45,257 nucleotides of DNA from Methanobacteriota archaeon. GTDB lineage: Archaea; Thermoplasmatota; Thermoplasmata; UBA10834; DTMW01. Both the position numbers and the translations under genes were made by a program. The notes under the pieces were generated by a model that saw nothing but the letters and a program-made list of their open reading frames with translations, was not told the origin of the DNA and did no database searches. Location: positions 1 to 45,257 of the forward strand of contig DSAX01000053.1 of the NCBI GenBank assembly GCA_011046235.1, in the 5' to 3' direction. This document shows, in pieces, positions 1-17,700 of the stretch (positions are counted from its first letter, which is position 1; every line of letters begins with the position of its first letter).

Positions 1-2163
1 ATCGTATGCGATTCCAGGGGGAATCTCCTGGTCGTTTGGCAGGATTTATATAGCGGACAGTGGGAAATCAAATATGACCGTTTGAATCTATTTGGAACCA
101 TCCTCGACTACGACGAGACGATCAGCTCGGAAATCCTCGGCAACTCTACGGGGCCCTTGGCCCTCATTGGAACACATAACGAGACCATCGTACTGTGGAT
201 CGGAGATATCGGAAATCCAGAGATCTACTTCACCAGAACGCTTCTGCCAGATCTGAGCGTCTCGTCCGGCGATGTATCCCTCAGCACATCCTCAGCGCTC
301 GAGAACACGACTCTTCTCGTCGATGCGATCATCAGAAATCTGGGAGATTCGGAAGCCCAAAATGTGGATGTAAAAGCCGTGGTGAACGGTGAAAGTCGAG
401 CAACGGATACGATCGACTCGCTGGCAGCCGGAGGGATATATGCGGCGACCTTCGAATTCACGGTCATCAAAGGGGACTCGGTCTGCGATATAATCGTGGA
501 CCAGGCTGATCTGATCTACGAATACGATGAGAGCAACAATGCGGCCAATATCGCTTTCTCGACCCTTTACTTCGATTACACGGCCATGGCCAGCGCCTCT
601 TTGCTTTCGATACCTCCCGGCGGTACGATGAACCTCACTCTCGATGTCGACAATGCCGGCAACTATCAGAACTCCGTCATGATCAATATATCCACCGATG
701 ACCTTCCTTCTGACTGGACATTCCAGGTCAGCGGGGGCAATGTCACGAATTTCACGCTCGAGGTCCCGGCTGGAGTTCAGTCATCGGTTCCGATCTCGAT
801 CTCGGTGCCCGACGGAGCGCCGGCCGGTACATGGAACATTCCGATATCCTCCGTCTCTCTGAGCGATCCGAGAATCGGATCGGACTGCGCTATCACGGTC
901 GAAGTGCCGTGGGTTGGAAGGATCGGGCTAATAGTACCGAATCCGGTTCAGCTCATACCCGGCAACTCTCACACCTTCCAGTTCACAGTATATAACCTGG
1001 GCAACCATATCGAATATTTCACTGCAGATGTCGCTGAGAGCAACAACTGGGAAGTATCAATAATCGGCGGGATGGACTTCTCCCTGTCCCCGCTTGAGAC
1101 CTATGTCATCCAGTGCAACGTAAATGTGCCCGAGTTCACGCTCCCGAACACGATGTCGGTCGTTGTAATGAACATCAGCTCGCTGAACCTGACGGGCAAC
1201 TTCATTTCCGGCGGACTGACATCAACAGTGACTGTGCACGAAGAGATATCGATGTATGTGACCTATCAGAACGTCACCCAGGACCAGTTCCAGCTGACCA
1301 GCGGCGCCTTCCAGTTGGAGATAACCAATACGGGCAACATCGGGGAGCAGATCAACGTCACCCTGATAGGTAATCAGACCTCGTTTCTGATAATCGACGA
1401 CAGCCTTTTCGTCCTGTCGCCAGCCAGCTCGAGGACGGTTACCGTCAATCTGACCGCCTCGGCTGATATTCCCGCGGGGAGCTATACCTTCGCTGTGAGG
1501 GCTCAGAGCACCTCAAACAGCCAAATTTTTGCAGAGACATCGCTTCAGTTCTCCATTGAGCCATTCTATGATCTGTACCTCGTTGTCGATCCGTCTCAGG
1601 TGGAAGGTCGTTCCGGATCCGTTTTGGAATCGACCGTCTCCGTATATAATTTCGGAAACGCCGATGACAGATGCACGCTATTCATCGATTACGCCGGTTT
1701 CAATGAGTCAACGGTCACGATCGACGGATTCGTCTACAAGATCGAAACCGACATTCTGCCAGATATAGAGCTTGATGTGGGAGGACATGTCCAGTTCTCA
1801 ATTTCGATCATCACCGAGGGGCGTCCGCCGGACAGGTACGCGGTATTCATCATGGTCGATTCAGCGAACGACCCGAGTGTGTCATCCGATGCTTCCCTTT
1901 TCGTCGTTATAACGCAGAAGCGCTCTCTGATAGATGTAATACTCTCTCCGATTGTGCTCATAGCCATTATCTCCGCGGCGGCGTTCGGGATTTACTTCTT
2001 GCTGATAATGCTCGGGGTCATGCCGGTCCCGAAGATAATAAGAAAGGAGCCGGCGGCTAGGACTTCCAAGGCGAGGGCTTCAGAGAGAACTAGCAGAGAG
2101 GCTCAGGCCCGTAGAGCCCAGCAACCAGGAAGGGCGGCGACCAGACCGGTGCAGAGAAGATAG
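1..2163 (+). CDS. Membrane-anchored cell-surface protein, 5'-truncated by the window edge. It has a CARDB-like domain, repeated all-beta NEW3/COG1470-like modules, a C-terminal TM helix and a basic cytoplasmic tail.
   Basis: Frame 1 is open from base 1 (IVCDSRGNLLVVWQDLYSGQWEIKYDRLNLF...) with no stop before the TTG listed at 82, so the gene continues upstream of the window. CARDB-type signature: NLGDSEAQNVDVKAVVNGE ... YEYDESNNAANIAF. Repeated segments of the type IPPGG..NLTL.V.N.GN and P.GAPAG.W. Hydrophobic stretch ILSPIVLIAIISAAAFGIYFLLIMLGV, followed by an Arg/Lys-rich tail. Confidence 0.8.
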   Translation: MVCDSRGNLLVVWQDLYSGQWEIKYDRLNLFGTILDYDETISSEILGNSTGPLALIGTHNETIVLWIGDIGNPEIYFTRTLLPDLSVSSGDVSLSTSSALENTTLLVDAIIRNLGDSEAQNVDVKAVVNGESRATDTIDSLAAGGIYAATFEFTVIKGDSVCDIIVDQADLIYEYDESNNAANIAFSTLYFDYTAMASASLLSIPPGGTMNLTLDVDNAGNYQNSVMINISTDDLPSDWTFQVSGGNVTNFTLEVPAGVQSSVPISISVPDGAPAGTWNIPISSVSLSDPRIGSDCAITVEVPWVGRIGLIVPNPVQLIPGNSHTFQFTVYNLGNHIEYFTADVAESNNWEVSIIGGMDFSLSPLETYVIQCNVNVPEFTLPNTMSVVVMNISSLNLTGNFISGGLTSTVTVHEEISMYVTYQNVTQDQFQLTSGAFQLEITNTGNIGEQINVTLIGNQTSFLIIDDSLFVLSPASSRTVTVNLTASADIPAGSYTFAVRAQSTSNSQIFAETSLQFSIEPFYDLYLVVDPSQVEGRSGSVLESTVSVYNFGNADDRCTLFIDYAGFNESTVTIDGFVYKIETDILPDIELDVGGHVQFSISIITEGRPPDRYAVFIMVDSANDPSVSSDASLFVVITQKRSLIDVILSPIVLIAIISAAAFGIYFLLIMLGVMPVPKIIRKEPAARTSKARASERTSREAQARRAQQPGRAATRPVQRR

Positions 2164-2220: not shown

Positions 2221-2229
2221 ATTTAATTT
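2221..2229 (+). promoter_or_regulatory. Candidate TATA-like box (ATTTAATTT) upstream of the GTPase gene, followed by an SD-like GGTGAGGAGGT at 2250-2260
   Basis: AT-rich box about 50 nt upstream of the ATG at 2274, with a purine-rich SD-like element 14-24 nt upstream of that ATG. Confidence 0.35.
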
Positions 2230-2273
2230 GCTTCTATCTCATTATCCCCGGTGAGGAGGTCGATCTCCTGAGC

Positions 2274-3098
2274 ATGATCAACTCGAAACACCTGAGAAAG
2301 AAAGTGGTTCTCATCGGTGACAGCGCCGTGGGAAAGACCTCGCTCGTCAGAAGATATGTGATCGATCTTTTTGACGATAAATACATCGCGACGATAGGCA
2401 CCAAAGTGCTCAAGAAGGAGATCGAGTACAAGCTTCCGGCCAGATCGATCTATCTGACCATGATGATCTGGGATATCCTCGGCCAGAGAGATTATCGTAA
2501 TGTCAGAGACACGAGTCTCAAAGGTGCCAACGGGGCCATCATCGTTTCCGATCTTTCCAGACCCGAGACGATTTCCGGCATAGCCGAGTTTTGGGTTCCA
2601 CAGATACAGGATGTCATTGGGAACATATCTATGGTCGTTATCGGAAACAAATGCGACCTCGTGCCAGAAGGCGACAAATCGATCGAACTGCTATCCTCCC
2701 TCTCTTCCGAGCTGTCAAGTCCGTATTTCATATGCAGCGCCAAGAACGGCCAAAATGTCGAGAACGCTTTCAAATCGATCGGAGAACTCGTTCTGAGAGA
2801 CGGGATCGATTCTATTGGCATGGAGGAGACGCAACCCGCGTTTTCGCTCACAAACGCGGTGGATTTCATCATCAGTGACTTCTGTGAGCAGTACGGCGAC
2901 ATCCCGAAAGGGATGGAAATAATCGAGCAGAAATTCTCGAATGCGGGCGTCGATATCAACGCACCGGTAAAGGATGATATCCTCGAGGCATTGGAATTGC
3001 TGGCAGATGTCGAGAAAGACCGTCTCGGAAGAGAAATCTCGGAGATCAACAAGCTGAGAAGATGGAGGAAGCTTGAGGAGACCGAGAGCAGTCAGTGA
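2274..3098 (+). CDS. Ras/Rab-type small GTPase (Ras superfamily) with a roughly 100-aa helical C-terminal extension
   Basis: All five G motifs are present: G1 GDSAVGKT, switch I Thr in IATIGTK, G3 WDILGQ (DxxGQ), G4 GNKCDL (NKxD), G5 CSAKNG (SAK). The G domain ends near residue 170. Residues 170-274 have no motif I recognise. Confidence 0.85.
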   Translation: MINSKHLRKKVVLIGDSAVGKTSLVRRYVIDLFDDKYIATIGTKVLKKEIEYKLPARSIYLTMMIWDILGQRDYRNVRDTSLKGANGAIIVSDLSRPETISGIAEFWVPQIQDVIGNISMVVIGNKCDLVPEGDKSIELLSSLSSELSSPYFICSAKNGQNVENAFKSIGELVLRDGIDSIGMEETQPAFSLTNAVDFIISDFCEQYGDIPKGMEIIEQKFSNAGVDINAPVKDDILEALELLADVEKDRLGREISEINKLRRWRKLEETESSQ

Positions 3099-3112
3099 TT
3101 GTATTTCGAAGT

Positions 3113-6100
3113 CTACATCCTGATTGGCTTATTCTTGCCCTTGTCCTTCGAGTTATCTAGATAGAAGTTGTTGAACAGGATCTCTATGCCCGCCAGATCT
3201 GTCGCAGAATCCCCGGAGAAGTTCTGTATTCTCTTCCCGTAGATCTTCTGAATCTTGCCCTTGAGATTGTCCAGCTTCTGTTCAAGGTCGTTCGGTGCCG
3301 TTCCGGAGTAGGCGATGGCTAAGTACGAGAAATTGCCCCTGTGGAGGGCGACCGTATAATCCTTGAAATCGAAGTGCTTGATCCCCTTGCTTTTTTGCTC
3401 GAACGCATCGTCTACAAAATCGAGAACAGCGGTGAGCATGCCGCTGAAGATGTCGTCGTCCACCTTGACCGTGTCTCCTTTGGCGTACCGGGCCATCAGC
3501 ATGCCGGTATTGTGAATTAGCATTATGTCCTGAATACTGAACGGACCTTTCATTCGCCGGCTTATTATGACAAATGCCAGTAGCGCTCCCAGTGCGGCGA
3601 TCATTGTAATTATCCACAGGAAGAAGATCTCCTGGGGATTGTCGACTCTCTCCCTCTCAATGACCACGAGCAAAACACAGGAAGTCTCGCCGCCATCCAT
3701 ATCTCTCACGGTGATCGTTACATGTTCTGTGATCGAGTCCGCATCGCCCAAATATTCCTCCGGAAAGTCAAATATCAGATGACCCGAAAAGCCGATGATG
3801 TATTCCGGCATACTTGTACTTATGATGAGCATCTCTATTGGGGTCTCAACATCGTATACATCCTCGCCCAAGCTCAATATCGATTCGACCCCAGCAATCA
3901 CATGTACCTCTCCAATATCTCCGATGACCGGCAGATCGTTTTCGGACAAAACTGTGAGCAAGACGGTTCTCTCGGAGAACGCACCTTCAGAATCGGTAGC
4001 TCTTACGGTCAAGAAGAGCTCCCCGAACCAGTTATCTGTCTGTGTGAAATTGAGACGGGTTCCAGACTGATCCTGCTTGACGGCGATGCTGATGTTCTCT
4101 TCCCAGCAAAACGCAGAATATGCCAAGTCTGGGCCGTCCTCGACATCGTCGAAGAAAAATTCGAGATAGGCCGTTAACGGGTAATCCAGCTCCTCATCCT
4201 CAACGAAGGAATGGTCCGGAAGCCCGATGCAGTATGGCGGATAGTCGGTTCCGACGGTGATCGAGAAGGAGCAGGTCTCCGAGGACCTTCCATCGCTAAC
4301 GACGAGGTTTATCTGATATGAGTTTCCGACCATGTTCTGTGACATCAGAATGGTCATTATGCCATCGGAGAAGCTTATGTTGTCATCCATATTGGTCGAG
4401 AATTCCAGCTCTTCCAAAAGTGTATCCGGATCGAATACATATGGGAATAGGGACAGCGAATATGGTACATTGTACCGGACCACTATGTCCGGTATCTGCC
4501 TGACCTCAGGCGACTGCATCACTCTCAGGACCGTGACATAGATGGTATCTTCGACTCTTGCATTGCTAGGATCAATCGCCCTAAAGGTGATCCTCTCGAC
4601 GCCGTACCAATCCATCGGGGCGAAAAAATCGACCTGTCCCGAGTATTGATATACCACGATGTCGACCTCGACGTTCCCCACTACGAAAAACAGGGTATCG
4701 TCATCCAAATCATCGAAATACTGGAATAGGTTGAAGGCGTTAATCACAGATCCGCCCTGATATAACGTGATATCCGGCAGTTTTTCGAGAATTATCGGGG
4801 GAATGTCGTCCGAGACTAAGACATCAAAAGTCGTGGAACCCTGAAGCTCTCCGTCATCTACGCTTATTTCGAACTCTACCTCGGTTCCATTCAGGCTTTC
4901 AGGCAGAAGGAACGTTCCGATTAGACCATCGAATGTCACATACGCTGCGTTCTCGTTCGTGCAAGTCAAATTGAGCTGGTCTGACGGTGTCTCTACATCC
5001 TGGACATACGGCTCGAAATCGTATTCGTAAGCCATATCGAAGTGTACTGTGAAGTCAATGATCCGCTCGATTTGCGGAGCATCATTGACCGGGATTATTT
5101 CGATGATTAGATTTTGACTCGCCGTCAGTCCTGCCGAGTCCACAACAGTGAATGTGATTTCATCTGTTCCGTACACATTTTCGGGAGCTGTAATCCACAT
5201 ATACCTTGCATTTGTTCTGTTTTCTCCCTGCACGGATATCAGCGACTTGCCAGAAGTGTACCACTTCAGAAGCTCCAGACTATCCTCGCAGTCGTGAATA
5301 TATGGCTCAAGATCGATTATCAGCTCGCCGAAATCCTCTTGAACCGTTTGATCCGGTATCCGTGGAGATATATATGGGGGATCCTCGACCGGTAGTATGA
5401 AAACACTGATATTCTGGCTTACCTCCAGCAAAGTGGAATCTACCAGAGTGAAAGTGATCACATCCGTTCCAAACAGGTTCTCGCCAACGGAGATGTTCAT
5501 TTCCATATTTCCAGTGATGTTCTCCCCTTCTATCGAGATAATGGATTCTCCTGTGACATACCAGGTCAGGGAAGCCTGGATATCGTTCGGATCGTGGATA
5601 TATGGCGTGAGATCGACAGTCCAAGGCAAAGCGTCTTCGTACACGATTTGATCCGGAATTACGGGACTGATATATGGCGGAGCAGGAGTTTCCGAGGTTG
5701 TCTGGTACGATACGCTCATACTGTAGACTTCGGGGGAAGCTCCAGGATCTGCGGCTGTGAGATCGATCCTTATCTTTATCATGCCAGTTGACACATCCGC
5801 CGATCTTATATCTCCTGAGGGTGACGGAACCGGAAACCAGTTTCCCCCGCCGTCCGTCGAGTATCTCAGAACGACCCAGCCTCCATTTTCAACGAAGTCT
5901 GCCCAGCTCCTGTTCCACTCTCTCAAATTATCGGGTGCGACGGCGTCTTCCGTTTCTATGCTCCCTTCAAGAACATACTCGATGCCTCCAGATTTTAGAG
6001 AATGAAGAATCGGCGTACAGGAACCCGTTGCTGTTGTCAAGTTCGCTTTTATCTGGATATATCTGGATATCCTGTCGATTTGAGCAAAGGCCGTGGCATT

Positions 6101-8797
6101 TGAAAATGGGATCTCCATCCATATGGACCAACTCGGATCTTCGACATCGATCGAATTTCCGGTTCGTATGAAAACGGTGATATTTGAATCAGCGACAATT
6201 GTGGAGTTGAGATCAATGAAAGTCCAGTGAGTGCGAGAAAGGAATCCGATTGTTTCCGATACATACTCGCCGCTGCTGGGGTACCTTATCACGTCATACC
6301 CGATATAGAGAAATGGGCGCTGTGAGCTGTTCGAGATTTCGGATGAGAAATACTTTACAATTCCGTCTGAACCTATCCCCGGAATAAGAAATACCGATGG
6401 TGAGTCCAATTGTCCACTATATTGCCATTCTTCTATAGTTTCCGTGATGTCAAAGGTATTCCACCCATTGCCATTGAATGGATTTATAACATATGTTGCC
6501 GTCAGATTGAAGTCGCCTCCGGTCTGATTCCATTCCATGCCATCGGATGCGTGTGTCCAATTGGCCGCGTAAACCGGAAGGTCGTAGTACAACACTTCGC
6601 AGGCCAATTTCGCCGATCCGTCTGGAGAGTTCGATTCGGACAGAGCCTTGCTAAGGCTCGATTCCCTGAAATCCATCCGCCAATCCATCGAGAACCCCGC
6701 GGTATGATAGATCCTCATCGCATTGTCGGACATGGCCAGAATTTCCAGGTTGCAGTCCCCTTCGATGTCTGCGGAAATAATTGCCTTGTCAATCCTCGAG
6801 CCGGTTGAAAACGCCTGGATCTTCCCGATCATCGTTCCGTTTCTATCGATGATGTTGATGGCTCCCTCTCTGTCACCGATGAAGATCTCGAAGATTCCAT
6901 CGCCATCGTAATCCATGAATGATATCGAACCGCGTGATTCATTTGCCAAGTTGCATTCCCAGATAATCGTGGAATCGGTATTTATCGCCAATACCTTCCT
7001 CGGTTCTCTGGCAATGGCAACGATTTCGTTCTCACCGTCATCATCAATATCTGCAACGGCGAGGCCGTCGCCGTATCTTGCGTTAATGTCATCATAGGTC
7101 CACAGAAGCTCACCGTTGCTGCCATTGACAACATGAACCGCTCCCCCGCCCGCGTCTTCGCCAAGGGCTATATCCTCATACTCGTCTCCGAGCATACGTG
7201 CTGCAGCGAAAGAATTTTTGTAGCTAGAAGAGCTCACAGAGGTGTTCTCCCATGCAAGGGTGCCGTTTGAATACAGGAGAGCGATGGCTCCATTATCGCA
7301 TCCTACGGCGATCTCGAGTCCGGATGAATTTTTGAAATCGCCAATGACAATTTGAGCCGGTGTTGCGTCGATATAATTCTCCGGCGTTTGCCAAATTATC
7401 GACCCGTTCATTCCGGAGACTGCGAATATCTTCTTCTTGTCATTTGTGCCAATTATGATCTCCGGTACCCCGTCCTGATCGATATCGCCGACGGCCGGTT
7501 GAGTCATTCCATTGGCATCGATTCCAGCAACACTGCCATCAAAGAGCAACATCCCTTCTGAATCGATGACCTTGAACCCGACGTTTCCGGCTGAATAGAT
7601 TATCTCAGGATAACCATCGAGATTCACATCCGCGATGGTCAGTGAATCCCCGAGATCTTCATCCGTTGAAAAAGGAGCCGCCCAGAGCGGTGTGCCCATG
7701 CTCAATGGGTTTATCTCGGATCCATTATAGGCGATGATGTACCGCGATGCGCGGTCGAATATTATCACGTCCAGGTAACCGTCCATGTTTAAATCCGCAA
7801 TCGCTGGCACGCATTCGGGGTCCGAAACCAATCCTCCGCCCATTACAGATGGCATGTCATCCAAATCTCGATATTCCGGCACATCGGATCTTTCCGCATA
7901 ATATCTCAGCAGGAAAGCTTTCGATTCGAAGGGAGCGCAGGTGACGGGAAAGCCGATTGTGGCGGATTGCAGCGTGCCGTTCAGAGAGGTCTGTATTAGG
8001 AATCGGGAGGCGTGTTCAATGCCATCACTGTACAATATCAGCTGAACATCCGGATCCAATGTTTCGAGTTCCGGCGGAATCGATATATCGACCAGAACCG
8101 GCTCATTGATTCGTGGTGTCCCCTCCGTCTCATTTACAATTATGGTTGCAACCGTATAATCCCAGCCGCCATCTCCTTCGGTCCAATCGGATTCCGATCC
8201 CCGGACCTCGATGGTACCGTTGAGATCGCACACTTCTTTGAAGAAGGACAGGGTCGCGGTGATATTGAACGCATCGCTGGGGATGACCGAAGAAAGGAAG
8301 GCCGAGTCGAGGCGCAAAAGAGCATTGTAATCATATCCGTTCGAATCGCTCCCAATTAGGATGAAGTCGGAACCGCCGTAGTTGATTCCCGGTGTGGAGC
8401 TGGTAATGTATGTGTCCGATATGCGAGATCCGTCCAGAACGACATTGTCTGTCTGTCTTATCGGTTCAATGACAGGTAGAAGCAGGTCTCCCGGCTGAGA
8501 ATCCTTATCGAGACCTGTAAGGCTGCCATTCGAGAAGTCCTGGGATGACGTGATTGTCCGTTCCACTGTGCTGTAGCCGAGCCGCAGAGTGCCATTTTCT
8601 ATTACGGTGTTGTTCAGCGTATAATTTGAGGGATTGCTGAAATCCCATGTGAACGTCCGGTCCAGATCACTGGTCTCCTCCCATAACGGATCAGAAACAG
8701 CTAAAATCGCAAATTGAAATAGTAACTGGGTCATGACGACAACTGAGATGGAGATGATTCTCCAGATTTGTTTCCGATCCCTCCGAACGGCAATCAA
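3113..8797 (-). CDS. Giant (1894 aa) type-I membrane receptor-like surface protein. Order: signal/anchor, DNRLRE-like carbohydrate-binding-type modules, FG-GAP/VCBS beta-propeller, seven cadherin/Ig-like modules, one TM helix, and a 145-aa cytoplasmic alpha/beta domain.
   Basis: Single uninterrupted ORF. The N-terminus is RRDRKQ followed by the hydrophobic IWRIISISVVVMTQLLFQFAILAV. There are seven to eight DxDxDG-type blades. Tandem modules end in VxD/VND-P boundaries. The TM helix is IFFLWIITMIAALGALLAFVIIS followed by RRMK. The start codon is TTG at 8797; an internal ATG (M22) is an alternative. Confidence 0.9.
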   Translation of the reverse strand: MIAVRRDRKQIWRIISISVVVMTQLLFQFAILAVSDPLWEETSDLDRTFTWDFSNPSNYTLNNTVIENGTLRLGYSTVERTITSSQDFSNGSLTGLDKDSQPGDLLLPVIEPIRQTDNVVLDGSRISDTYITSSTPGINYGGSDFILIGSDSNGYDYNALLRLDSAFLSSVIPSDAFNITATLSFFKEVCDLNGTIEVRGSESDWTEGDGGWDYTVATIIVNETEGTPRINEPVLVDISIPPELETLDPDVQLILYSDGIEHASRFLIQTSLNGTLQSATIGFPVTCAPFESKAFLLRYYAERSDVPEYRDLDDMPSVMGGGLVSDPECVPAIADLNMDGYLDVIIFDRASRYIIAYNGSEINPLSMGTPLWAAPFSTDEDLGDSLTIADVNLDGYPEIIYSAGNVGFKVIDSEGMLLFDGSVAGIDANGMTQPAVGDIDQDGVPEIIIGTNDKKKIFAVSGMNGSIIWQTPENYIDATPAQIVIGDFKNSSGLEIAVGCDNGAIALLYSNGTLAWENTSVSSSSYKNSFAAARMLGDEYEDIALGEDAGGGAVHVVNGSNGELLWTYDDINARYGDGLAVADIDDDGENEIVAIAREPRKVLAINTDSTIIWECNLANESRGSISFMDYDGDGIFEIFIGDREGAINIIDRNGTMIGKIQAFSTGSRIDKAIISADIEGDCNLEILAMSDNAMRIYHTAGFSMDWRMDFRESSLSKALSESNSPDGSAKLACEVLYYDLPVYAANWTHASDGMEWNQTGGDFNLTATYVINPFNGNGWNTFDITETIEEWQYSGQLDSPSVFLIPGIGSDGIVKYFSSEISNSSQRPFLYIGYDVIRYPSSGEYVSETIGFLSRTHWTFIDLNSTIVADSNITVFIRTGNSIDVEDPSWSIWMEIPFSNATAFAQIDRISRYIQIKANLTTATGSCTPILHSLKSGGIEYVLEGSIETEDAVAPDNLREWNRSWADFVENGGWVVLRYSTDGGGNWFPVPSPSGDIRSADVSTGMIKIRIDLTAADPGASPEVYSMSVSYQTTSETPAPPYISPVIPDQIVYEDALPWTVDLTPYIHDPNDIQASLTWYVTGESIISIEGENITGNMEMNISVGENLFGTDVITFTLVDSTLLEVSQNISVFILPVEDPPYISPRIPDQTVQEDFGELIIDLEPYIHDCEDSLELLKWYTSGKSLISVQGENRTNARYMWITAPENVYGTDEITFTVVDSAGLTASQNLIIEIIPVNDAPQIERIIDFTVHFDMAYEYDFEPYVQDVETPSDQLNLTCTNENAAYVTFDGLIGTFLLPESLNGTEVEFEISVDDGELQGSTTFDVLVSDDIPPIILEKLPDITLYQGGSVINAFNLFQYFDDLDDDTLFFVVGNVEVDIVVYQYSGQVDFFAPMDWYGVERITFRAIDPSNARVEDTIYVTVLRVMQSPEVRQIPDIVVRYNVPYSLSLFPYVFDPDTLLEELEFSTNMDDNISFSDGIMTILMSQNMVGNSYQINLVVSDGRSSETCSFSITVGTDYPPYCIGLPDHSFVEDEELDYPLTAYLEFFFDDVEDGPDLAYSAFCWEENISIAVKQDQSGTRLNFTQTDNWFGELFLTVRATDSEGAFSERTVLLTVLSENDLPVIGDIGEVHVIAGVESILSLGEDVYDVETPIEMLIISTSMPEYIIGFSGHLIFDFPEEYLGDADSITEHVTITVRDMDGGETSCVLLVVIERERVDNPQEIFFLWIITMIAALGALLAFVIISRRMKGPFSIQDIMLIHNTGMLMARYAKGDTVKVDDDIFSGMLTAVLDFVDDAFEQKSKGIKHFDFKDYTVALHRGNFSYLAIAYSGTAPNDLEQKLDNLKGKIQKIYGKRIQNFSGDSATDLAGIEILFNNFYLDNSKDKGKNKPIRM
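3116..3550 (-). other. Cytoplasmic C-terminal domain of the giant protein, with a longin/roadblock-like alpha/beta pattern
   Basis: The domain follows the TM helix directly. Proposed elements from the residue pattern: IQDIMLIH (beta), MLMARYA (beta), DDDIFSGMLTAVLDFVDDAF (amphipathic helix), IKHFDFKDYTVALHRG (beta hairpin), SYLAIAYSG (beta), NDLEQKLDNLKGKIQKIYGKRI (helix). The fold assignment is inferred from this pattern only. Confidence 0.45.
3629..5680 (-). repeat. Seven tandem 90-102-aa cadherin/Ig-like modules (about aa 1040-1723) inside the giant CDS
   Basis: Modules begin PPYISPVIPDQ, PPYISPRIPDQ, APQIERIIDF, PPIILEKLPD, PEVRQIPDIV, PPYCIGLPDH and LPVIGDIGEV. Each has a (Y/F)(I/V)xD(P/V/C)(D/E) acidic loop about 25 residues in and ends with a V..V(x)D/ND boundary. 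Confidence 0.7.
6698..7825 (-). other. FG-GAP/VCBS (integrin-alpha-like) beta-propeller region of the giant protein (about aa 325-700)
   Basis: Repeated Ca-binding-type loops: ADLNMDGYLDVII, ADVNLDGYPEIIY, GDIDQDGVPEIIIG, GDFKNSSGLEIAV, ADIDDDGENEIVA, MDYDGDGIFEIFIG, ADIEGDCNLEILA. They are interleaved with G..(I/L)W strands (NGSIIWQ, NGTLAWEN, NGELLWTY, DSTIIWEC). Coordinates were verified by back-translating LNMDG at 7778-7792. Confidence 0.75.
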
Positions 8798-9017: not shown

Positions 9018-9632
9018 TTGGCTACAACCATGAAAAAGCGGACGCTTGAAATAAAGCTGGCCAAGCTCGAGGTGCCGGAATCTCCCAAGGCAGATCTCGA
9101 GCAGTACACAACACCCGCGGACGTCGCATCCGATCTCCTCTGGACCGCCCTTTCATTCGGGGATATCCAGGGAAGGAAGATAGCCGACCTGGGCTGCGGG
9201 AACGGCATACTGGGCATCGGAGCGTATCTCCTGGGAGCCGAGGAGGTCACATGCTATGATGTCGACCCCGGCATGGTCGAGCTCGCGAAAAGGAATGCCG
9301 CCTCGATCTCGGCCAATATCATTGGGGTCTGCTCCGATGCGGAATCCATCAGTGAGAGATATCAAACGGTCGTCCAGAACCCGCCTTTCGGAGCGCAGAG
9401 AAGTGCCGCTGACAGGCCGTTCCTCCGGACGGCGATACGAATCTCAGAGGTGGCATACTCGCTTCACATGGCGGAAACGACCGGCTTCGTTGCAAAATTC
9501 TGCAACTCGATCGGAGCGGAAGTTCAGCACATCAAAAGTTATAAGTTCAAGATACCGTTCATGTTCGAATTTCACAGCAAGCCAGAGGATTTCGTGGATG
9601 TTGCATTGCTGAGAATAAAAACCAGAGGGTGA
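9018..9632 (+). CDS. COG2263/METTL5-like RNA (N6-adenine-type) methyltransferase
   Basis: SAM motif I DLGCGNGILGIGA, acidic motif II CYDVD, catalytic NPPFG. It lies directly upstream of csl4, a pairing known from archaeal exosome-linked neighbourhoods. The listed start is TTG at 9018; an ATG at 9030 is an alternative. Confidence 0.8.
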   Translation: MATTMKKRTLEIKLAKLEVPESPKADLEQYTTPADVASDLLWTALSFGDIQGRKIADLGCGNGILGIGAYLLGAEEVTCYDVDPGMVELAKRNAASISANIIGVCSDAESISERYQTVVQNPPFGAQRSAADRPFLRTAIRISEVAYSLHMAETTGFVAKFCNSIGAEVQHIKSYKFKIPFMFEFHSKPEDFVDVALLRIKTRG

Positions 9633-9638
9633 AACCTC

Positions 9639-10211
9639 TTGACAGAAAAAAAGGAATCAAAGAAGGTCCTCCCAGGTGAGCTTGTGGCTACCGCCGAGGA
9701 GTATATGCCAGGTTTCGGAACCTTCGAGGACGACGGGAACATCTACTCCACTGCCATTGGATCGCTTTACCTCGACGAAGGGAACAAGATCGCCAGACTC
9801 GATTTCAAGAATCCACCTCTCGTCGCGTTCGACGAGGATGTGGTATTCTGCGAGGTGACAGACGTTAAGCCATCCATGGTCGTCTGCAGGATCCAGGCGA
9901 TGGAGGGCACCAGCAGAGGCATCACCGGGGAAACGATGGGAACCCTTCATGTGAGCAAGATCTCAAACCGGTATGTCGAGGACGCCTCGGAAAAATTCAG
10001 AATCACAGATATAATTAGGGCGGAGGTTATCCAGAGCCGGCCTTCGATTCAGCTGACGACCGCGAAGCCGCACCTGGGGGTCATAATGGCCAGATGCAAT
10101 TCCTGCCGGGAACCGCTCGACAGGAAGGGCAACAAGCTGTACTGCGAGAGCTGCGAGAGGACCGAATATCGTAAACTCGCGAAAGATTACCGCGATGTCA
10201 AGCCCTGTTAG
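9639..10211 (+). CDS. csl4: Exosome complex RNA-binding subunit Csl4 (N-terminal domain, S1 domain, C-terminal zinc ribbon)
   Basis: N-terminal LPGELVATAEEYMPGFGTFEDDGNIYS, a central S1-like block (VVFCEVTDVKPSMVVCRI ... GTLHVSKISNRYV), and a C-terminal CNSC...CESC zinc ribbon. The size of about 190 aa is typical for archaeal Csl4. Confidence 0.85.
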   Translation: MTEKKESKKVLPGELVATAEEYMPGFGTFEDDGNIYSTAIGSLYLDEGNKIARLDFKNPPLVAFDEDVVFCEVTDVKPSMVVCRIQAMEGTSRGITGETMGTLHVSKISNRYVEDASEKFRITDIIRAEVIQSRPSIQLTTAKPHLGVIMARCNSCREPLDRKGNKLYCESCERTEYRKLAKDYRDVKPC

Positions 10212-10269
10212 GTGCAAAAGAGATAAATCACCGGTCCAAGATAAGCAAATACGGGAAAAGAGGCGTTTG

Positions 10270-10449
10270 ATGTATTCTGATGCAGAAGAGATGGTCAGGG
10301 AGATCAAAAAGCTTCGGGAGGAGCTCAACCAGATGCGAGAGATCGTGAACATGCTCCTCAATGTGGTTATGGAAGAATCGGAGGAGGATGAGTTCGAACA
10401 AGCTCTCCTTCAGGACGACTCGGCGAAGCGATTCAACCTGTACAACTGA
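10270..10449 (+). CDS. Hypothetical small acidic coiled-coil protein (59 aa if started at the internal ATG)
   Basis: Part of listed ORF 10195..10449. The ATG at 10270 gives MYSDAEEMVREIKKLREELNQMREIVNMLLNVVMEESEEDEFE..., which has heptad character. No family recognised. Confidence 0.35.
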   Translation: MYSDAEEMVREIKKLREELNQMREIVNMLLNVVMEESEEDEFEQALLQDDSAKRFNLYN

Positions 10450-10569
10450 AGCTGTCAAGCAAAGAACTACGGCGGGCGTCGCTAATTATTCAGTCTATTG
10501 CCGAATCAGATTCCTGGGAGACAGGTCTAAGTCCGAATTCAGCTATCACGCCACTGCGGAGGCACGAGC

Positions 10570-11226
10570 ATGGACCGTATGAAACTGGTGCTGCTTCTCT
10601 CAGGAGGCATTGATTCCCCTGTCGCGGGCTATTTGATGGGCAGACAGCGAGCTGAAATCATCGCTCTTTCCGGATTCGTGAGCTCCGGAAACGAGGAAGC
10701 CCATGTTCGTAAAATGACTGCCCTCGCAGGCAAGATCGCCGTGTCCATCGGGCATGAGGTGTCACTTCATGTATATGATCAGAGTCTCGCCCTCGACTGT
10801 TTCAGAGACGGAATGAGGCCGAACCTTACGTGCGTGCTGTGCAAGCGCGCAATGCTCAGGATGGCTGAGAAGCTTTGTAAGATGACCGACAGCTCTGCGA
10901 TTATAACCGGGGACTCCCTCGGGCAGGTCGCGTCGCAGACACTGCGGAATATCGCCGTTATCGAAAACGCAGTCGCGACGCCGATCCTGCGGCCGCTGAT
11001 CGGTTTAGATAAGATGGACATCGTTCGGATTGCGCGGAACATCGGCACATACGGCACATCGATTGCCTCCGGAGCGCCATCATGCGAATTCGTTCCAAAG
11101 CACCCAGCAACGAGGTCGCTGATCGAGGAAGTACTGGAGGAGGAGATGAGGGTCGGGATCGAAGGGATAATGGACGAAATGGCCAGCACACTGAGGGTGA
11201 TCGAGCATGAAAGATTCAACGAATGA
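10570..11226 (+). CDS. ThiI-like PP-loop ATP pyrophosphatase (tRNA 4-thiouridine/thiazole sulfurtransferase catalytic domain only, without THUMP or rhodanese domains)
   Basis: PP-loop LLLSGGIDSPVA, plus ThiI signatures GDSLGQVASQTL and ILRPLIGLDKMDIV. Three Cys residues are placed as in Fe-S-type archaeal ThiI (CVLC and SCEF). At 218 aa it is too short to hold the N-terminal ferredoxin-like and THUMP module. Confidence 0.75.
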   Translation: MDRMKLVLLLSGGIDSPVAGYLMGRQRAEIIALSGFVSSGNEEAHVRKMTALAGKIAVSIGHEVSLHVYDQSLALDCFRDGMRPNLTCVLCKRAMLRMAEKLCKMTDSSAIITGDSLGQVASQTLRNIAVIENAVATPILRPLIGLDKMDIVRIARNIGTYGTSIASGAPSCEFVPKHPATRSLIEEVLEEEMRVGIEGIMDEMASTLRVIEHERFNE

Positions 11227-11710
11227 GGCTAAAAAGACGCTTGTGGCCGATACTTCGGCCCTCTTCAACGCGTCCGATTTTCCGGCCCACTTCGATATAG
11301 TCGTCCCGCCAGGAGTAGTGGAAGAGCTTAGAAGATGGGGCATGGATCGGCGATTGGATATGCTTCTGGCCTCTAGAATCGAAGTCCGAATTCCGTTGAA
11401 CGGCTCGCTCGAAAAAGCCCGCAAAGCCTCCGAGGCGACAGGGGACATAGGCAGACTGTCAGATACCGACATCTCCGTCGTCGCCCTGGCGATCGAGCTC
11501 GAGGCGCCCGCCATCACGGATGACTACTCGATTCAGAACGTGATTAAATCGCTCGGTGGGAAGTTCCTCACGATGGAGAAGATCGGGATCAGGGATGTAT
11601 TTACTTGGGAGTTCCGATGCTCCGGCTGCGGCAAACTATTCAAAGAGAAAATCGATGAATGCGATGTCTGCGGGCACAGGCTGCGGTCCTGGCGCGCCAG
11701 GAAAAAATGA
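11207..11710 (+). CDS. nob1: Nob1-type endoribonuclease (PIN domain plus C-terminal zinc ribbon), 16S rRNA 3'-end maturation
   Basis: PIN acidic residues in LVADTSALF and LSDTDISVVALAIEL. C-terminal CSGC...CDVC ribbon. The size of about 167 aa and this architecture match archaeal Nob1. It overlaps the ThiI-like gene by 20 nt. Confidence 0.8.
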   Translation: MKDSTNEAKKTLVADTSALFNASDFPAHFDIVVPPGVVEELRRWGMDRRLDMLLASRIEVRIPLNGSLEKARKASEATGDIGRLSDTDISVVALAIELEAPAITDDYSIQNVIKSLGGKFLTMEKIGIRDVFTWEFRCSGCGKLFKEKIDECDVCGHRLRSWRARKK

Positions 11711-11718
11711 GCTTTAGC

Positions 11719-12804
11719 CTAGAAGAGGTAGAACAATCTCTTGCACAGGATCGCCCGCTCCAACCCCCTTGACCTCAACATTTTCATCGCGAGCTCGAGC
11801 CTCAGGTCGCCGCTGAGGAAACGGTCTGCGATCGCCTTGGTACGAGCCGCGTTCCTCAACGGGCGGTATACCTGCCGCCTCCACTCCGTCTCATAGGCGC
11901 CGAGGTCTGGTCCTCCCCTCAACGCGCTCGAAATGCAGCGACCCGCGATCCTGCCGCAGATCATCGCGATAGGGATTCCCCCGCCGTTAGTGGCCATCAC
12001 CTGACCGGCGGCGTCTCCGACGAGCAGGCCGTTCCCTCGGACCGTCTTTTTTATTGGTCCGGAGATCGGTACCTGGCCGTAAGTGGTCTCCCCGCATTCA
12101 ATGTCGTGCTTCTCCTGGAAAAGCCTGAGCAGCTCGGTCAGCGGAAGTGAAGACATGACTTTCTGCACCCCGAGGCCGACATTCGCGGTTTCCCTCTTTG
12201 GGATTATCCATGCATACCCTCCAGGTGCGACCGGGCCGAAGTACATGCTCACCCTGTCCCCCCAGTCACCCGCAGCCTGGGCGGTGATCGCCTGGCTTAT
12301 CGATTTCGGAGCATCCAGCGAAAGTGCCCGTCGCACCCTGGACAGCGGACCATCTGCGCCCACTATGACATCGAAGCCGATCTTGCCAGCGGAGGTATTT
12401 GCCGAGCCACTGTTTTCCAATCCCTGGAACTCAACCCCGGTCGAGAGCCTCGCGCCCTCCTTCTCCGCCCTCCTCCAGATCTCCTTGTCGAATCTGCGCC
12501 TGTCGACCGTCAGGCCGTTGAATTTGATGGAGAATGAGGACCCTCTCGGACCGTAAAGGTCGATGTACCTTGTTTCCCTTTCAACAATGCCAGGGGGGAT
12601 CTCGAACAGGTCACCATACGCCTCGCTCCCGGGCAGTATTCTCCTGAGCTCGTCCGCTATCGGAATGAATTCTCCGCACTGAACCGGGAATCCAATCTCC
12701 TCCCTGCGATCGATTGCGAGGACATCCAACCCGGCCCTGGCGATCTCTCTGGCGGTACAGCTGCCAGCCGGGCCCGCCCCGACGACCAGAACAGTCGTCT
12801 TCAT
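11719..12804 (-). CDS. Geranylgeranyl reductase family flavoprotein (lipid or quinone prenyl reductase)
   Basis: FAD dinucleotide fold MKTTVLVVGAGPAGSCTAREIARAG, then GFPVQCGEFI and GDAAGQVMATNGGGI. The start is set at the internal ATG (12804) because it forms an ATGA overlap with the stop of the upstream methyltransferase. The 32-codon extension in the listed ORF is probably not translated. Confidence 0.85.
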   Translation of the reverse strand: MKTTVLVVGAGPAGSCTAREIARAGLDVLAIDRREEIGFPVQCGEFIPIADELRRILPGSEAYGDLFEIPPGIVERETRYIDLYGPRGSSFSIKFNGLTVDRRRFDKEIWRRAEKEGARLSTGVEFQGLENSGSANTSAGKIGFDVIVGADGPLSRVRRALSLDAPKSISQAITAQAAGDWGDRVSMYFGPVAPGGYAWIIPKRETANVGLGVQKVMSSLPLTELLRLFQEKHDIECGETTYGQVPISGPIKKTVRGNGLLVGDAAGQVMATNGGGIPIAMICGRIAGRCISSALRGGPDLGAYETEWRRQVYRPLRNAARTKAIADRFLSGDLRLELAMKMLRSRGLERAILCKRLFYLF

Positions 12805-13517
12805 CTCTTCACGCCACTGAGCAGAAAAGCGCCGCCCATAGAAAGCAGCTTCCATTCGACATCTTTGAACCCCATTCCCCGCATGGATTCGGCATAGCAA
12901 CCGGGCGTTTCGAAGTGATCATATGTGACCCAGAGCGTGTCATAGGGATTGCCGTTCCACTCTTTCATCTCGCTTCTCGGTATGACGAACTTGGACAGGA
13001 AAGGGACCATGTTCTTCAGATAGGATTTGACCAACCAGCTCTTGAGCCGTCCCTCTCTTTTTGCGATATCGACTATCACGGCGACGCCGTCTTTCCTGAG
13101 CACCCTCAGCATCTCTCTGAGGCTCTTCTCCTTGTCCGAAAAATCTCTGAACGAGAACGAGCAGAAGATCCTGTCGAAGCTCTCGGTGGCAATGGGCAGC
13201 TCCTCCGCCACACCCGCTGCGAACTGAATGTTGCCGGCCGTTCTGCGCCTTGCGACTCCTATCAGCTTCTCGGACGGCTCGACGCAGACTACGCTCCTCC
13301 CCCTCAGAAGCATGGCGAAGCTACCCGGACCGGAGCCTATCTCGAGTATGTCGAGGCCCGGGCCAGAAAAATCGATCGCGCTCCTCCTCCATTTATCGGC
13401 CTGGAAGAGCGTGGAGAGTTCATTGACTCTGTCGTAGTAGTCCGATACCGCCTCGATCGACGATACGATTCGAAGCCATTCTTCTCGGTCGAGCCCGTCC
13501 CTGCTCAGGGCCAGCAC
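12801..13517 (-). CDS. ubiE: UbiE/MenG-family SAM-dependent (demethyl)menaquinone C-methyltransferase
   Basis: YDRVNELSTLFQADKWRR N-terminal signature of the UbiE/COQ5 family, SAM motif I LDILEIGSGPG, and the post-I acidic residue. Confidence 0.75.
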   Translation of the reverse strand: MLALSRDGLDREEWLRIVSSIEAVSDYYDRVNELSTLFQADKWRRSAIDFSGPGLDILEIGSGPGSFAMLLRGRSVVCVEPSEKLIGVARRRTAGNIQFAAGVAEELPIATESFDRIFCSFSFRDFSDKEKSLREMLRVLRKDGVAVIVDIAKREGRLKSWLVKSYLKNMVPFLSKFVIPRSEMKEWNGNPYDTLWVTYDHFETPGCYAESMRGMGFKDVEWKLLSMGGAFLLSGVKR

Positions 13518-13525
13518 CTCCCTGA

Positions 13526-14617
13526 TCAGATCGATCTGCCAATGATCAGTTTAGGCAGTTCCGCAAGTTTGTTCTTGAAAATGGAATCCTGAATTCCGTC
13601 CAGGTATTCGAGCCCGGCTTCCGCGTATCTGTGGGAGGCGTCGTAGGCGGCGTCCACGCCGCCGCTTTCCCTGATCATCGCGAGAAATTCTGCCGTCTGT
13701 CTTGCGCCGATGTCTCGGTTGCCCAGAACCCCGGGCAGCCTCCTGGCGACATCGGGGTCGTTCTCCGCGGCCAAGATGACAGGCAGGGTCATGTTCCCCT
13801 CCCTTATATCGGAGCCGGTGCGCTTCCCCAGACTCTTCTCATCTCCTACGATATCGAGTATGTCGTCCACGATCTGGAATGCGATCCCGATGTTCATCCC
13901 GTACCCGCCGAACGCCTTGATCTGATCACCGTTCCTCTCTGCCAGTCTGGCGCCCACCTGGGCAGAGGTCTTGATCGGATGGGCCGTCTTGCCCCTTATG
14001 ATCTTCATGTACTCTTCGACGGAGAGATCGGAGTTGTTCCTGTTCATGTACTGCATTATCTCCCCCTCGGCGAGCGATCTGCAGGACTCCGCGACGAGGT
14101 CCACGATGTCGGCTTCGTATTTCCCGCCCACGCAGAAGGCCATCGCGAACATGAAGTCTCCAGCCACAATCGCCTCGTGAAGCCCGAACTGTCGGTACGC
14201 TGCTCTCTTGCCCCGCCTCATCTCCGCACCGTCATTGATATCGTCGTGGATGAGCGTGGCCGAATGTATCAGTTCTATCGCGGCGGATATGTCGATTACG
14301 CTATCGATATCCTCTCCCATGAGCGATCTATGGGCCAATATCGCAAGGCTGGGACGAAGCCTCTTCCCCCCGGAATCCACCACGTGCAGCGCGACATCCG
14401 TGAGGATCTTCTGGGAAGAATTGATCAGTTCTCTCATGCGTCTTTCGACCGAGGCGAGCTCCTCCTCGAGACCGAGCTCCGAGGCCCATTGGCTCATGCA
14501 GGCCGACATATCAGGAAATCCGTACTTAACCCTGTCCTCTGGAACGGATTCGAGTTCTCTCGCTTCCGACTCTTCGGTCTCTCGCTGCAATTCGATCCTC
14601 TCAGACGGTAATGCCAT
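13526..14617 (-). CDS. trans-Polyprenyl diphosphate synthase (IspB/HepT-like, probably the quinone side-chain synthase)
   Basis: GGKRLRPSL, first Asp-rich motif LIHDDINDG, second motif FQIVDDILD. There are about 35-40 extra acidic residues at the N-terminus compared with what I expect, so the true start may be an internal Met (MSACMSQW...). Confidence 0.85.
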   Translation of the reverse strand: MALPSERIELQRETEESEARELESVPEDRVKYGFPDMSACMSQWASELGLEEELASVERRMRELINSSQKILTDVALHVVDSGGKRLRPSLAILAHRSLMGEDIDSVIDISAAIELIHSATLIHDDINDGAEMRRGKRAAYRQFGLHEAIVAGDFMFAMAFCVGGKYEADIVDLVAESCRSLAEGEIMQYMNRNNSDLSVEEYMKIIRGKTAHPIKTSAQVGARLAERNGDQIKAFGGYGMNIGIAFQIVDDILDIVGDEKSLGKRTGSDIREGNMTLPVILAAENDPDVARRLPGVLGNRDIGARQTAEFLAMIRESGGVDAAYDASHRYAEAGLEYLDGIQDSIFKNKLAELPKLIIGRSI

Positions 14618-14624
14618 CCTTTCA

Positions 14625-16169
14625 TCAGCCGATCGGGAGCAGCCCGTTCAGCGCCCTCGCAGCCTCCAGCGCCCCCTCGAGGAACGGCTCCGGATAGAGT
14701 CCAATGAACACGGTCACGATCATCGCGATGACGATGGCGGCCTGAATCAACGGTGGAACCTTTATCCTATCTTGGCTTTGAGGATTATGTATGTACATGC
14801 TCTTTATTATTCTGGCATAGTAGAACAGGCTCAGGGCGCTGTTCAGTATGCCCGCTATGGCAAGCCAAACCAGCCAGCTTGCGCCCCCCGGCTCGCTCGA
14901 GCCGAATATGGCAGCGGAGAACAGAACGAACTTGCTGTAGAAGCCCGCGAGAGGAGGTATCCCCGCAAGAGAGAGCACGAAGATTGCCATGGCCAATGCG
15001 AGGAACGGAGCCCTTTTGCTGAGGCCGTCGAAGTCCTTCAGGTTCTCCCCGAATCCCCTGACCGTCAGGGCCAAGATCACGAAGAACGCGCCGCTCTTCA
15101 TCGCCGCATGCGTGATGACGTGCAATATCCCACCGGCGACCGCATACTCGCTTATCCGAACGAGTTCAGGAGATGACGGATCGTACACCGCCCATACCGG
15201 GAGCGCGATGAGTATGTACCCGGCCTGCGCGATGCTCGAGTATGCCAGCATCCTCTTCACGCTGTTTTGCTGGATTGCGACGAGGTTGCCCACGGTCATC
15301 GTCAATATCGCGATGATCCCGATTGCCAGGTCCCACTGCGCCTTATAGGCGAGAAGGGCGACTATGAATATCTTGAATAGCGCCGCAATCCCCATCTTCT
15401 TGGATGCAGCTGCGAGAAGTGCGGTAATGGATGTCGGGGCGCCCTCGTATACGTCGGGAGCCCACATATGGAACGGCACGGCTGCGATCTTGAAGCCCAG
15501 CCCTATTATCAGCATGGCGATGCCGAGCAGTACGATCGGGCCGTACTCGGCCCCCATCGCTCCGAGCTCGGTCAGGTTGGTCGTTCCGCCTGCGCCGTAG
15601 AGCAACGACATGCCGAATAGAGATATGGCCGAGGAGAAGCCGCCCACGATGAAGTACTTCATCGCGGCCTCGGTCGATCTCTTGACCGACTTCTGGAACC
15701 CGGTCAGCGCGTAGCTGGAGATCCCGGCGATCTCGAGCCCGAGGAATATCACGATGAGATCCCCGGCGGTGGCCACGAAGCTCATGCCGGTGACCGCGAT
15801 CAGCAGCAGGGCGTAATACTCGCCGTGGTTCCTCTCGCGTTTAATGTAATCAGGGGATACGAAGGCGACCAGCGCCCCGACGAATACGAATACGACCGTG
15901 AAGACCATGGAGAACGCGTTGACGGCGAAGATCGAGGTCTCCGGCGGCTGTTCCCAGAACAGGAACGGCACCAGGTTCTGAGTCTCCGGTATGAGCGCGA
16001 GGATCTCCATGACGCCGACGATGGTGAGCCCGATGATCACCCAATAGGCTATGCCTCTCCGCATCTTCAGCCATAGATCCAGCGCCGGGCATAACAGCGC
16101 GAATATCAGCAGCAGTATCTGCGGCATGAGCACTCCGAAGTATTCCGCAGCCGTGGCCGTCTCAGCCAC
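14625..16169 (-). CDS. nuoN: NADH:quinone oxidoreductase (complex I-like) subunit N
   Basis: Polytopic antiporter-like protein with FHMWAPDVYEGAPTSITALLAA. It is the last nuo gene and its start overlaps the nuoM stop by 8 nt. Confidence 0.9.
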   Translation of the reverse strand: MAETATAAEYFGVLMPQILLLIFALLCPALDLWLKMRRGIAYWVIIGLTIVGVMEILALIPETQNLVPFLFWEQPPETSIFAVNAFSMVFTVVFVFVGALVAFVSPDYIKRERNHGEYYALLLIAVTGMSFVATAGDLIVIFLGLEIAGISSYALTGFQKSVKRSTEAAMKYFIVGGFSSAISLFGMSLLYGAGGTTNLTELGAMGAEYGPIVLLGIAMLIIGLGFKIAAVPFHMWAPDVYEGAPTSITALLAAASKKMGIAALFKIFIVALLAYKAQWDLAIGIIAILTMTVGNLVAIQQNSVKRMLAYSSIAQAGYILIALPVWAVYDPSSPELVRISEYAVAGGILHVITHAAMKSGAFFVILALTVRGFGENLKDFDGLSKRAPFLALAMAIFVLSLAGIPPLAGFYSKFVLFSAAIFGSSEPGGASWLVWLAIAGILNSALSLFYYARIIKSMYIHNPQSQDRIKVPPLIQAAIVIAMIVTVFIGLYPEPFLEGALEAARALNGLLPIG

Positions 16170-17697: not shown

Positions 17698-17700
17698 CTG

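Follow-up and report, generated by a model that had tools for sequence, protein, structure and literature searches.

The stretch considered here (hereafter the window) is the entire metagenomic contig DSAX01000053.1, of 45,258 bp, from an archaeon of the Thermoplasmatota. Near its start, the genes for a Rab-like small GTPase and for a giant type-I surface protein stand tail to tail. The GTPase open reading frame (ORF) runs from 2274 to 3098 on the forward strand and the surface-protein gene from 3113 to 8734 on the reverse strand, with 14 nt between the two stops, exactly as a preliminary description made from the sequence had placed them (Table 1). The 145-aa cytoplasmic tail of the surface protein is confirmed by its predicted structure as a longin fold within the longin/roadblock superfamily. 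The domain family to which the tail belongs is recurrently linked to Ras-like GTPase genes, a linkage supported by the observed gene order. On balance we lean towards the tail being functionally coupled to the neighbouring GTPase in this organism, given that the linkage is observed and the fold is modelled; the two proteins would presumably bind one another.

The tail follows a single membrane helix (IFFLWIITMIAALGALLAFVIIS) and the basic stretch RRMKG, which by the positive-inside rule would place it in the cytoplasm. An AlphaFold2 model was built from an alignment of 70 diverse sequences gathered by exhaustive profile search, and reached a predicted local distance difference test score (pLDDT) of 88.7 and a predicted template modelling score (pTM) of 0.81; a first model, from 6 close homologues, had a pLDDT of 45.7, too low for use. 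The elements of the 70-sequence model are E6-14, E19-24, H33-50, E58-63, E66-72, E76-83, H90-110, H116-119 and H123-134 (E, strand; H, helix), and every element that the preliminary description had guessed by eye coincides with one of them. There is no helix ahead of β1 and the order is therefore that of longin domains, not of roadblock domains. Foldseek searches of the PDB, for which the query was this predicted model and not a solved structure, returned 38 matches at E <= 0.001, and all 50 of the matches listed belong to the longin/roadblock superfamily. They include AP1 and AP2 sigma subunits, COPZ1, VAMP7, Sec22b, sedlin, Tca17, LAMTOR2/3, Asgard Roadblock2 and Thermus MglB. The template modelling (TM) scores were 0.66/0.75 against Sec22b (1ifq_A, root-mean-square deviation 3.0 Å), 0.65/0.62 against VAMP7 (4afi_A), 0.64/0.65 against AP2 sigma (6uri_S) and 0.65/0.71 against the SYBL1 longin domain (2dmw), all with a Foldseek probability of 1.00, whilst roadblock structures scored lower than longins, at 0.33-0.50 by query length. 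Comparison with Robl_LC7, longin and MglB structures, which the preliminary description had proposed as a check on its longin/roadblock layout, thus came out in favour of the longin half of that proposal; the roadblock order and a significant sequence match were not recovered.

Sequence comparisons count against the fold assignment. The Pfam model Fuz_longin_1 (PF19036) scored the tail at 17.5 bits (E = 0.005), under its cut-off of 26.1. Robl_LC7 (PF03259) and Fuz_longin_1 were the commonest weak Pfam matches over the 70 family members, in 5 and 2 of them respectively, and the best Robl_LC7 match (E = 0.024) is too weak for a roadblock assignment. When the family profile was aligned by hhalign with single sequences of Sec22b, AP2 sigma and LAMTOR2, which may be approximate, the alignments were in register at probabilities of at most 5% (Sec22b, 1%; LAMTOR2, 5%, E = 0.0077). 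Searches of PDB sequences with the family profiles gave noise only. Since none of this similarity is significant, the fold claim rests on predicted structure and not on demonstrable sequence homology. That the tail is a chance pattern with no real domain behind it is nevertheless hardly credible, being refuted by the 70-sequence model, the thousands of homologues and the uniformity of the Foldseek matches. Conservation across the family peaks at DxDIxSGMLTAVxxF, which forms helix α1 of the model. In MglA-MglB and longin-Rab complexes, the equivalent helix is the element that faces the GTPase.

At E <= 0.001 the tail profile retrieved 3,846 proteins, each representing a cluster at 50% identity; 1,102 passed a threshold of E <= 1e-10. 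No Pfam or NCBIfam model covers this family, and its members are deposited as "hypothetical protein" or "OmpA family protein". The main architecture is a leader, a large ectodomain, a membrane helix and the C-terminal domain. Bacterial members, of ~530-600 aa, have a helical N-terminus, the domain, a membrane helix, BON and OmpA. The family profile matched these bacterial OmpA proteins at 1e-17 to 1e-21, and a second family profile (A3) matched the bacterial loci at 1e-24 to 1e-41. That the first 150 aa of these bacterial proteins might be a second copy of the domain was considered and rejected, as this region is helical and its hidden Markov model (HMM) scores are close to zero. Other arrangements were also found. 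Two tandem copies occur in multi-pass membrane proteins of ~560-577 aa (P0049, P0050, P0062), which by analogy with longin/roadblock dimers could form an intramolecular pseudo-dimer platform. Giants of 2,100-2,400 aa without a predicted membrane helix, presumably soluble (P0006, P0020, P0035-P0042 and L031 1940-8482), contain two or three copies at a spacing of ~500 aa and also have CARDB and DUF5915 domains.

Genomes were scanned with a 23-sequence subset of the alignment, which confirmed 593 loci, and gene neighbourhoods were surveyed in the best 79 of these. The 79 loci come from Thermoplasmatota, Acidobacteriota, Chloroflexota, Bacteroidota, KSB1, Calditrichota, Gemmatimonadota, Desulfobacterota, Verrucomicrobiota and Proteobacteria; the contigs that carry P0013 and P0026 were too short for their contexts to be informative. 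Downstream sequence of 700 bp or more was available at 44 bacterial loci, from at least 8 phyla, and at 39 of these a scan with a G-domain HMM found a Ras-like GTPase ORF directly downstream on the same strand. These ORFs encode 165-190 aa and start within a few bases of the domain gene, often overlapping it. In Alteromonas halophila and in an Anaerolineales genome the pair is part of a four-gene operon, consisting of a coiled-coil protein, the domain-membrane helix-OmpA protein, the Ras-like GTPase and either a PAS-GGDEF-EAL protein or a histidine kinase. This operon matches the published neighbourhood of the Group 1 Rup GTPases, in which the domain of the membrane protein was left as of "unknown function" with no fold assigned (Wuichet & Søgaard-Andersen 2014, PMC4316618). 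In the same survey Group 1 Rup GTPases lacked the G3 glutamine, and no Rup GTPase was coupled to an MglB-type partner (PMC4316618). The partner GTPases found here likewise mostly have WDL/IAG followed by S, G, E or similar at G3, the sole exception being that of locus L073 (WDLAGQ). Among the papers searched there was no later characterisation of Rup systems, no fold assignment and no bacterial membrane-anchored longin. One Anaerolineales contig (L023) carries two Rup-type GTPase genes (2-556 and 6524-7057), 6 kb apart, of which the second copy at the contig edge suggests duplicated modules.

In the archaeal clade to which the window belongs, the convergent GTPase is kept at all seven loci (the window, L001, L002, L004, L005, L006 and L096; L004, L007 and L095 are the same locus and were counted once). 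Between the paired genes there is either an overlap of at most 13 nt or a gap of no more than 46 nt. Tails of this clade are 47-58% identical to that of the window, with one further relative, at 70%, known only as a protein. Their ectodomains range from a loop of ~20 aa to ~1,800 aa, their GTPases have diverged to 49-65% identity (except for the close pair L001/L005, at 83%), and a neighbouring FlaC/ArlD/E-like gene has flipped orientation among the loci, all with the GTPase adjacency unchanged. That adjacency should persist through ectodomain change, inversion of a neighbour and GTPase divergence argues for selection. Homologous tails are therefore found near small GTPase genes in both the bacterial loci and this clade, as the preliminary description had expected if its pairing of tail and GTPase by proximity were sound.

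The GTPase itself is the sole Rab-like GTPase gene found in the window. All five G motifs take the Ras/Rab form (G1 GDSAVGKT, G2 TIGTK, G3 WDILGQ with Gln71, G4 NKCD, G5 SAK), and identity to the bacterial partner GTPases of Group 1 Rup type is 30-40%. With a canonical DxxGQ at G3 and its best Pfam matches to Ras and Roc, it does not fall within the MglA family. The C-terminal extension is probably helical and had no match in Pfam or among PDB sequences; a word-indexed search with it alone returned 2 fragments only, and the full-length GTPase is covered by more than 100 protein clusters, mostly from Thermoplasmatota. The extension is kept in both archaeal clades described here, with or without a longin neighbour (L089, L090, L092, L094 and L096 included). 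In an earlier survey, a Thermoplasmatales archaeon and Aciduliprofundum were each noted to have one Rab-like protein (PMC4915359). The gene may possibly have its own promoter and ribosome-binding region, the latter (GGTGAGGAGG) lying 14 nt ahead of the ATG.

Judged by profile similarity, the tail and the membrane component of the Group 1 Rup system are homologues. Of the known systems it is Group 1 Rup that the window pair would work most like, with more distant resemblance to MglA-MglB and to the conservons. Both have a cytoplasmic domain beside a membrane helix and encoded next to a Ras/Rab-like GTPase. However, the bacterial order of N-terminal helical region, domain, membrane helix and BON/OmpA is reversed in the window protein, which runs from ectodomain through membrane helix to domain and lacks the BON and the periplasmic, peptidoglycan-binding OmpA domain in which the bacterial proteins end. 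The bacterial GTPase gene is co-directional and often overlapping, whereas the window genes are convergent; the bacterial GTPase lacks the G3 glutamine, whereas that of the window has Gln71 and an extension of 100 aa. A GGDEF-EAL or histidine-kinase output gene accompanies the bacterial pair, but in the window neither this nor a coiled-coil gene turned up when the ArlD/E-like and HTH_20 proteins of sister loci served as tblastn queries, or in a Pfam scan that covered part of the window's genes. The preliminary description had taken the pair for an undescribed kind of system. The fold had indeed been left unassigned in 2014, but the bacterial relatives are the published membrane component of Group 1 Rup (PMC4316618).

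The pair in the window is not an MglA/MglB pair. MglA-MglB of Myxococcus and Thermus also combines a Ras-like GTPase with a platform of the roadblock/longin superfamily that acts as GTPase activator, exchange factor or both, and MglB (1j3w) is among the structural matches. However, MglB is soluble, has the roadblock order and reached a TM score of only 0.33-0.36 to the tail model, whereas the window tail is tethered to the membrane and ordered as in longins. The MglA-type G3 motif lacks the canonical aspartate (PMC4316618), unlike the DxxGQ of the window GTPase. Actinobacterial conservons (CvnA-D, Mfp), summarised in PMC4316618 and PMC13015309, are similar in concept: a membrane sensor works with a roadblock-type protein and with a small GTPase as a transmembrane G-protein-like signalling unit. 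There, the histidine-kinase-like sensor, Roadblock and DUF742 are separate polypeptides and the GTPase is of MglA type; here, platform and membrane protein form one polypeptide, and neither a kinase nor DUF742 is present. Eukaryotic longins (Sec22b, VAMP7, Ykt6, Mon1-Ccz1, TRAPP, DENN, SRα-SRβ and the AP/COPI sigma and zeta subunits) share the ββαβββαα order, many partner Rab, Arf or SRβ GTPases, and the longin SNAREs are membrane-anchored, as is the window tail. The window tail, however, has no significant sequence similarity to them and no SNARE motif, its membrane helix precedes the domain, and its host lies outside the Asgard archaea. Likeness to integrin outside-in signalling is one of analogy only, in that an FG-GAP propeller, a single helix and a short tail are found near a small-GTPase pathway; the window tail is not homologous to that of integrins, and neither a β-subunit nor talin/kindlin-type adaptors are present.

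In the mechanism that we favour, the tail, probably dimeric like other longin/roadblock platforms, would dock the GTPase at the membrane. It would then recruit the GTPase or alter its nucleotide state, as an exchange factor or as a GTPase activator. Clustering or a conformational change of the ectodomain might thereby be relayed to cytoplasmic partners, for which the ArlC/D/E-like coiled-coil protein and the HTH regulator encoded at sister loci are candidates. In this Thermoplasmatota lineage the domain would have been set behind a membrane helix that bears in some cases a giant FG-GAP/Ig ectodomain and in others hardly any ectodomain. Tentatively, and with rather more doubt than confidence, membrane-tethered longin plus Rab-like (Rup) GTPase may be an ancient prokaryote-wide module, in at least 8 bacterial phyla and in Thermoplasmatota, which here would carry a giant integrin-like adhesin outside and act with a homologue of the ArlD/E-type archaellum adaptor inside, in control of motility or polarity by surface contact, by way of a G protein.

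Several observations weigh against coupling of tail and GTPase, and would fit a tail that works independently of the GTPase, as a dimerisation, cytoskeleton-anchoring or sorting module common to many surface proteins of Thermoplasmatota, and whose adjacency is synteny inherited from a single insertion beside a gene of a stable housekeeping block. The two genes are convergent and so are not co-transcribed. No GTPase is adjacent in 21 of the 23 archaeal genome loci that carry the domain, and in 20 of the 23 a motif scan found no small GTPase of any kind in the 7-kb flank; no conserved partner stands beside these orphan paralogues, whose neighbours are surface proteins, an M3 peptidase or the helicase Lhr. 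At the four distinct loci of a sister clade (L089, L090/91, L092/93 and L094), no longin gene lies within 10 kb of the GTPase, which has the same C-terminal extension and the same synteny, running from the GTPase through an MTS methyltransferase and Csl4 onward to ThiI, PIN, geranylgeranyl reductase and UbiE genes. A neighbour-joining tree splits the clades with and without the longin, so that one insertion or one loss, then inherited, explains the adjacency, and the housekeeping block around the GTPase is as conserved as the adjacency itself. Moreover, eukaryotic longins of SNAREs and adaptor sigma subunits, whose roles are unrelated to GTPases, are among the best structural matches. We nevertheless regard an independent tail as rather unlikely. 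In bacteria a Ras-like GTPase gene comes after the homologous domain in nearly every case (the 39 of 44 loci above), and it would be improbable for a paralogue to have landed by chance beside the single GTPase gene seen per locus, itself of the very family to which the domain is linked elsewhere. The adjacency has also been kept while ectodomains were lost or gained and local inversions took place. The pairing by proximity that the preliminary description had drawn is thus borne out in bacteria and in the window's own clade, but not at most other archaeal loci nor for the sister-clade GTPase. Among the archaeal orphan loci only one has a GTPase inside the 7-kb flank: in the Euryarchaeota metagenome-assembled genome RBG_16_67_27 (L041), the longin-tail gene and a Ras-like GTPase gene (1-798 and 4354-4977) are 3.5 kb apart.

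The GTPase may instead have the adjacent coiled-coil protein as its main partner, in an MglA-like control of polarity or motility to which the longin membrane protein would be one optional anchor or input. A 380-400-aa protein with FlaC_arch and Arch_fla_DE domains (ArlC/D/E-like) and a small HTH_20 regulator flank the GTPase, in varying orientation, in L001, L004, L005, L006 and L096, which may point to a connection with archaellum switching or polarity. In the sister clade (L089-L094) the GTPase is divergently paired with a 354-407-aa protein whose N-terminal α/β region is accompanied by a long coiled coil, and a coiled-coil protein is a fixed member of the bacterial Rup operons. However, the two archaeal coiled-coil proteins show no detectable homology to one another by blastp. 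A tblastn search with the sister-locus proteins detected neither an ArlD/E-like nor an HTH_20 gene in the window; only 2.2 kb of the contig lie upstream of the GTPase, and genes further upstream, those corresponding to the ArlD/E-like and HTH_20 genes of the sister loci included, are therefore out of view. We consider a coiled-coil main partner improbable as the whole explanation, and it is compatible with, not exclusive of, a longin platform for the GTPase.

The surface protein consists of an N-terminal hydrophobic leader, the ectodomain, the single membrane helix, RRMKG and the tail. Its ORF reaches upstream to a TTG at 8797 (1,894 aa), beyond the start chosen by the gene caller at 8734. The FG-GAP repeats of the ectodomain matched at E values of 1e-10 to 2e-11, and there are 34 N-glycosylation sequons. 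Some orthologues of the same clade are only 217-231 aa long, with two helices and hardly any ectodomain, and the FG-GAP propeller is therefore not a core part of the system. The preliminary description's integrin-like adhesion receptor survives as an FG-GAP ectodomain on one helix, but that ectodomain is inessential. GC content at third codon positions (GC3) is 0.56 in the ectodomain part of the gene, 0.72 in the tail part and 0.65-0.82 in neighbouring genes. This contrast, and the presence in the clade of giant as well as near-absent ectodomains, suggest that ectodomain cassettes have been swapped onto a conserved core of membrane helix plus longin.

Table 1. Positions of the features described, in the window unless a locus is named.
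Feature	Position	Strand	Basis
Rab/Ras-like small GTPase gene of Rup type, 274 aa	2274-3098	+	Pfam Ras 3.7e-35, Roc 2e-25
G domain, aa 10-173	2301-2792	+	Pfam Ras envelope
C-terminal extension of the GTPase, ~100 aa, with invariant E-x-NKLRRW motif	2796-3095	+	Alignments
Putative promoter TTTAAT (2222-2227) and ribosome-binding region GGTGAGGAGG (2250-2259)	2222-2259	+	Read from sequence
Spacer between the two convergent stop codons, 14 nt	3099-3112		
Giant type-I surface protein gene, 1,873 aa	3113-8734	-	Gene caller; deposited as hypothetical protein HDP96622.1
Cytoplasmic domain of predicted longin fold, β1 β2 α1 β3 β4 β5 α2 α3 α4	3152-3550	-	AlphaFold2 and Foldseek; family HMM 3e-44 over 3158-3550
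Membrane helix IFFLWIITMIAALGALLAFVIIS, then RRMKG	3560-3628	-	Translation
Ectodomain: DNRLRE/CBM96 module, FG-GAP β-propeller, Big_9, cadherin-like, tandem-95 repeats	3629-8695	-	
Partial gene for CARDB/Ig-like surface protein with C-terminal membrane helix and basic tail	1-2163	+	Pfam CARDB 5.2e-19
ArlC/D/E-like plus HTH_20 region of clade loci	L001 11592-13267; L004 1678-3568; L005 1981-3610; L006 6512-8100; L096 13327-14911		
Coiled-coil gene of sister clade	L089 8769-9917; L090 8772-9836; L092 2967-4148; L094 8564-9787		

Upstream of the GTPase gene and on the same strand, the CARDB surface-protein gene is truncated by the start of the contig. On the other side, a long stretch of synteny beside the GTPase (9030-19713 in the window) is conserved across Thermoplasmatota, in L001, L002, L089-L094 and L096. 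Its genes encode the MTS methyltransferase, Csl4 (ECR1_N), ThiI, a PIN protein, geranylgeranyl reductase, a UbiE methyltransferase, a polyprenyl synthase and NuoL/M/N-like antiporter subunits. ENA, JGI and Logan samples also include contigs identical to the window. Among the matches listed in a metagenome scan with alignment A1, the only contig was one already known.

The longin and roadblock platforms through which Rab, Arf and Rag GTPases are controlled are regarded as distinctive of membrane traffic in eukaryotes. Prokaryotic longin domains have been discussed mostly for Asgard archaea (PMC10933270, PMC4917890). What appears to be new here is a longin fold for a very large unannotated family, the spread of that family to giant adhesin-like proteins of Thermoplasmatota, and the reversed topology of the latter. 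If tail and GTPase are indeed coupled, an uncharacterised component of bacterial Rup operons would gain both a fold and a role as a GTPase platform, and the pairing of longin with Ras-like GTPase would be widespread in Bacteria and in one archaeal phylum outside the Asgard group. Thousands of "hypothetical" and "OmpA family" proteins would receive a domain annotation. The system would also offer a simple prokaryotic model of receptor-to-G-protein signalling, with natural variants that run from a bare membrane anchor to an FG-GAP adhesin of 1,700 aa. Should the prokaryote-wide module prove real, the partnership of longin domains with small GTPases would be older, and far wider, than the Asgard and eukaryote lineage.

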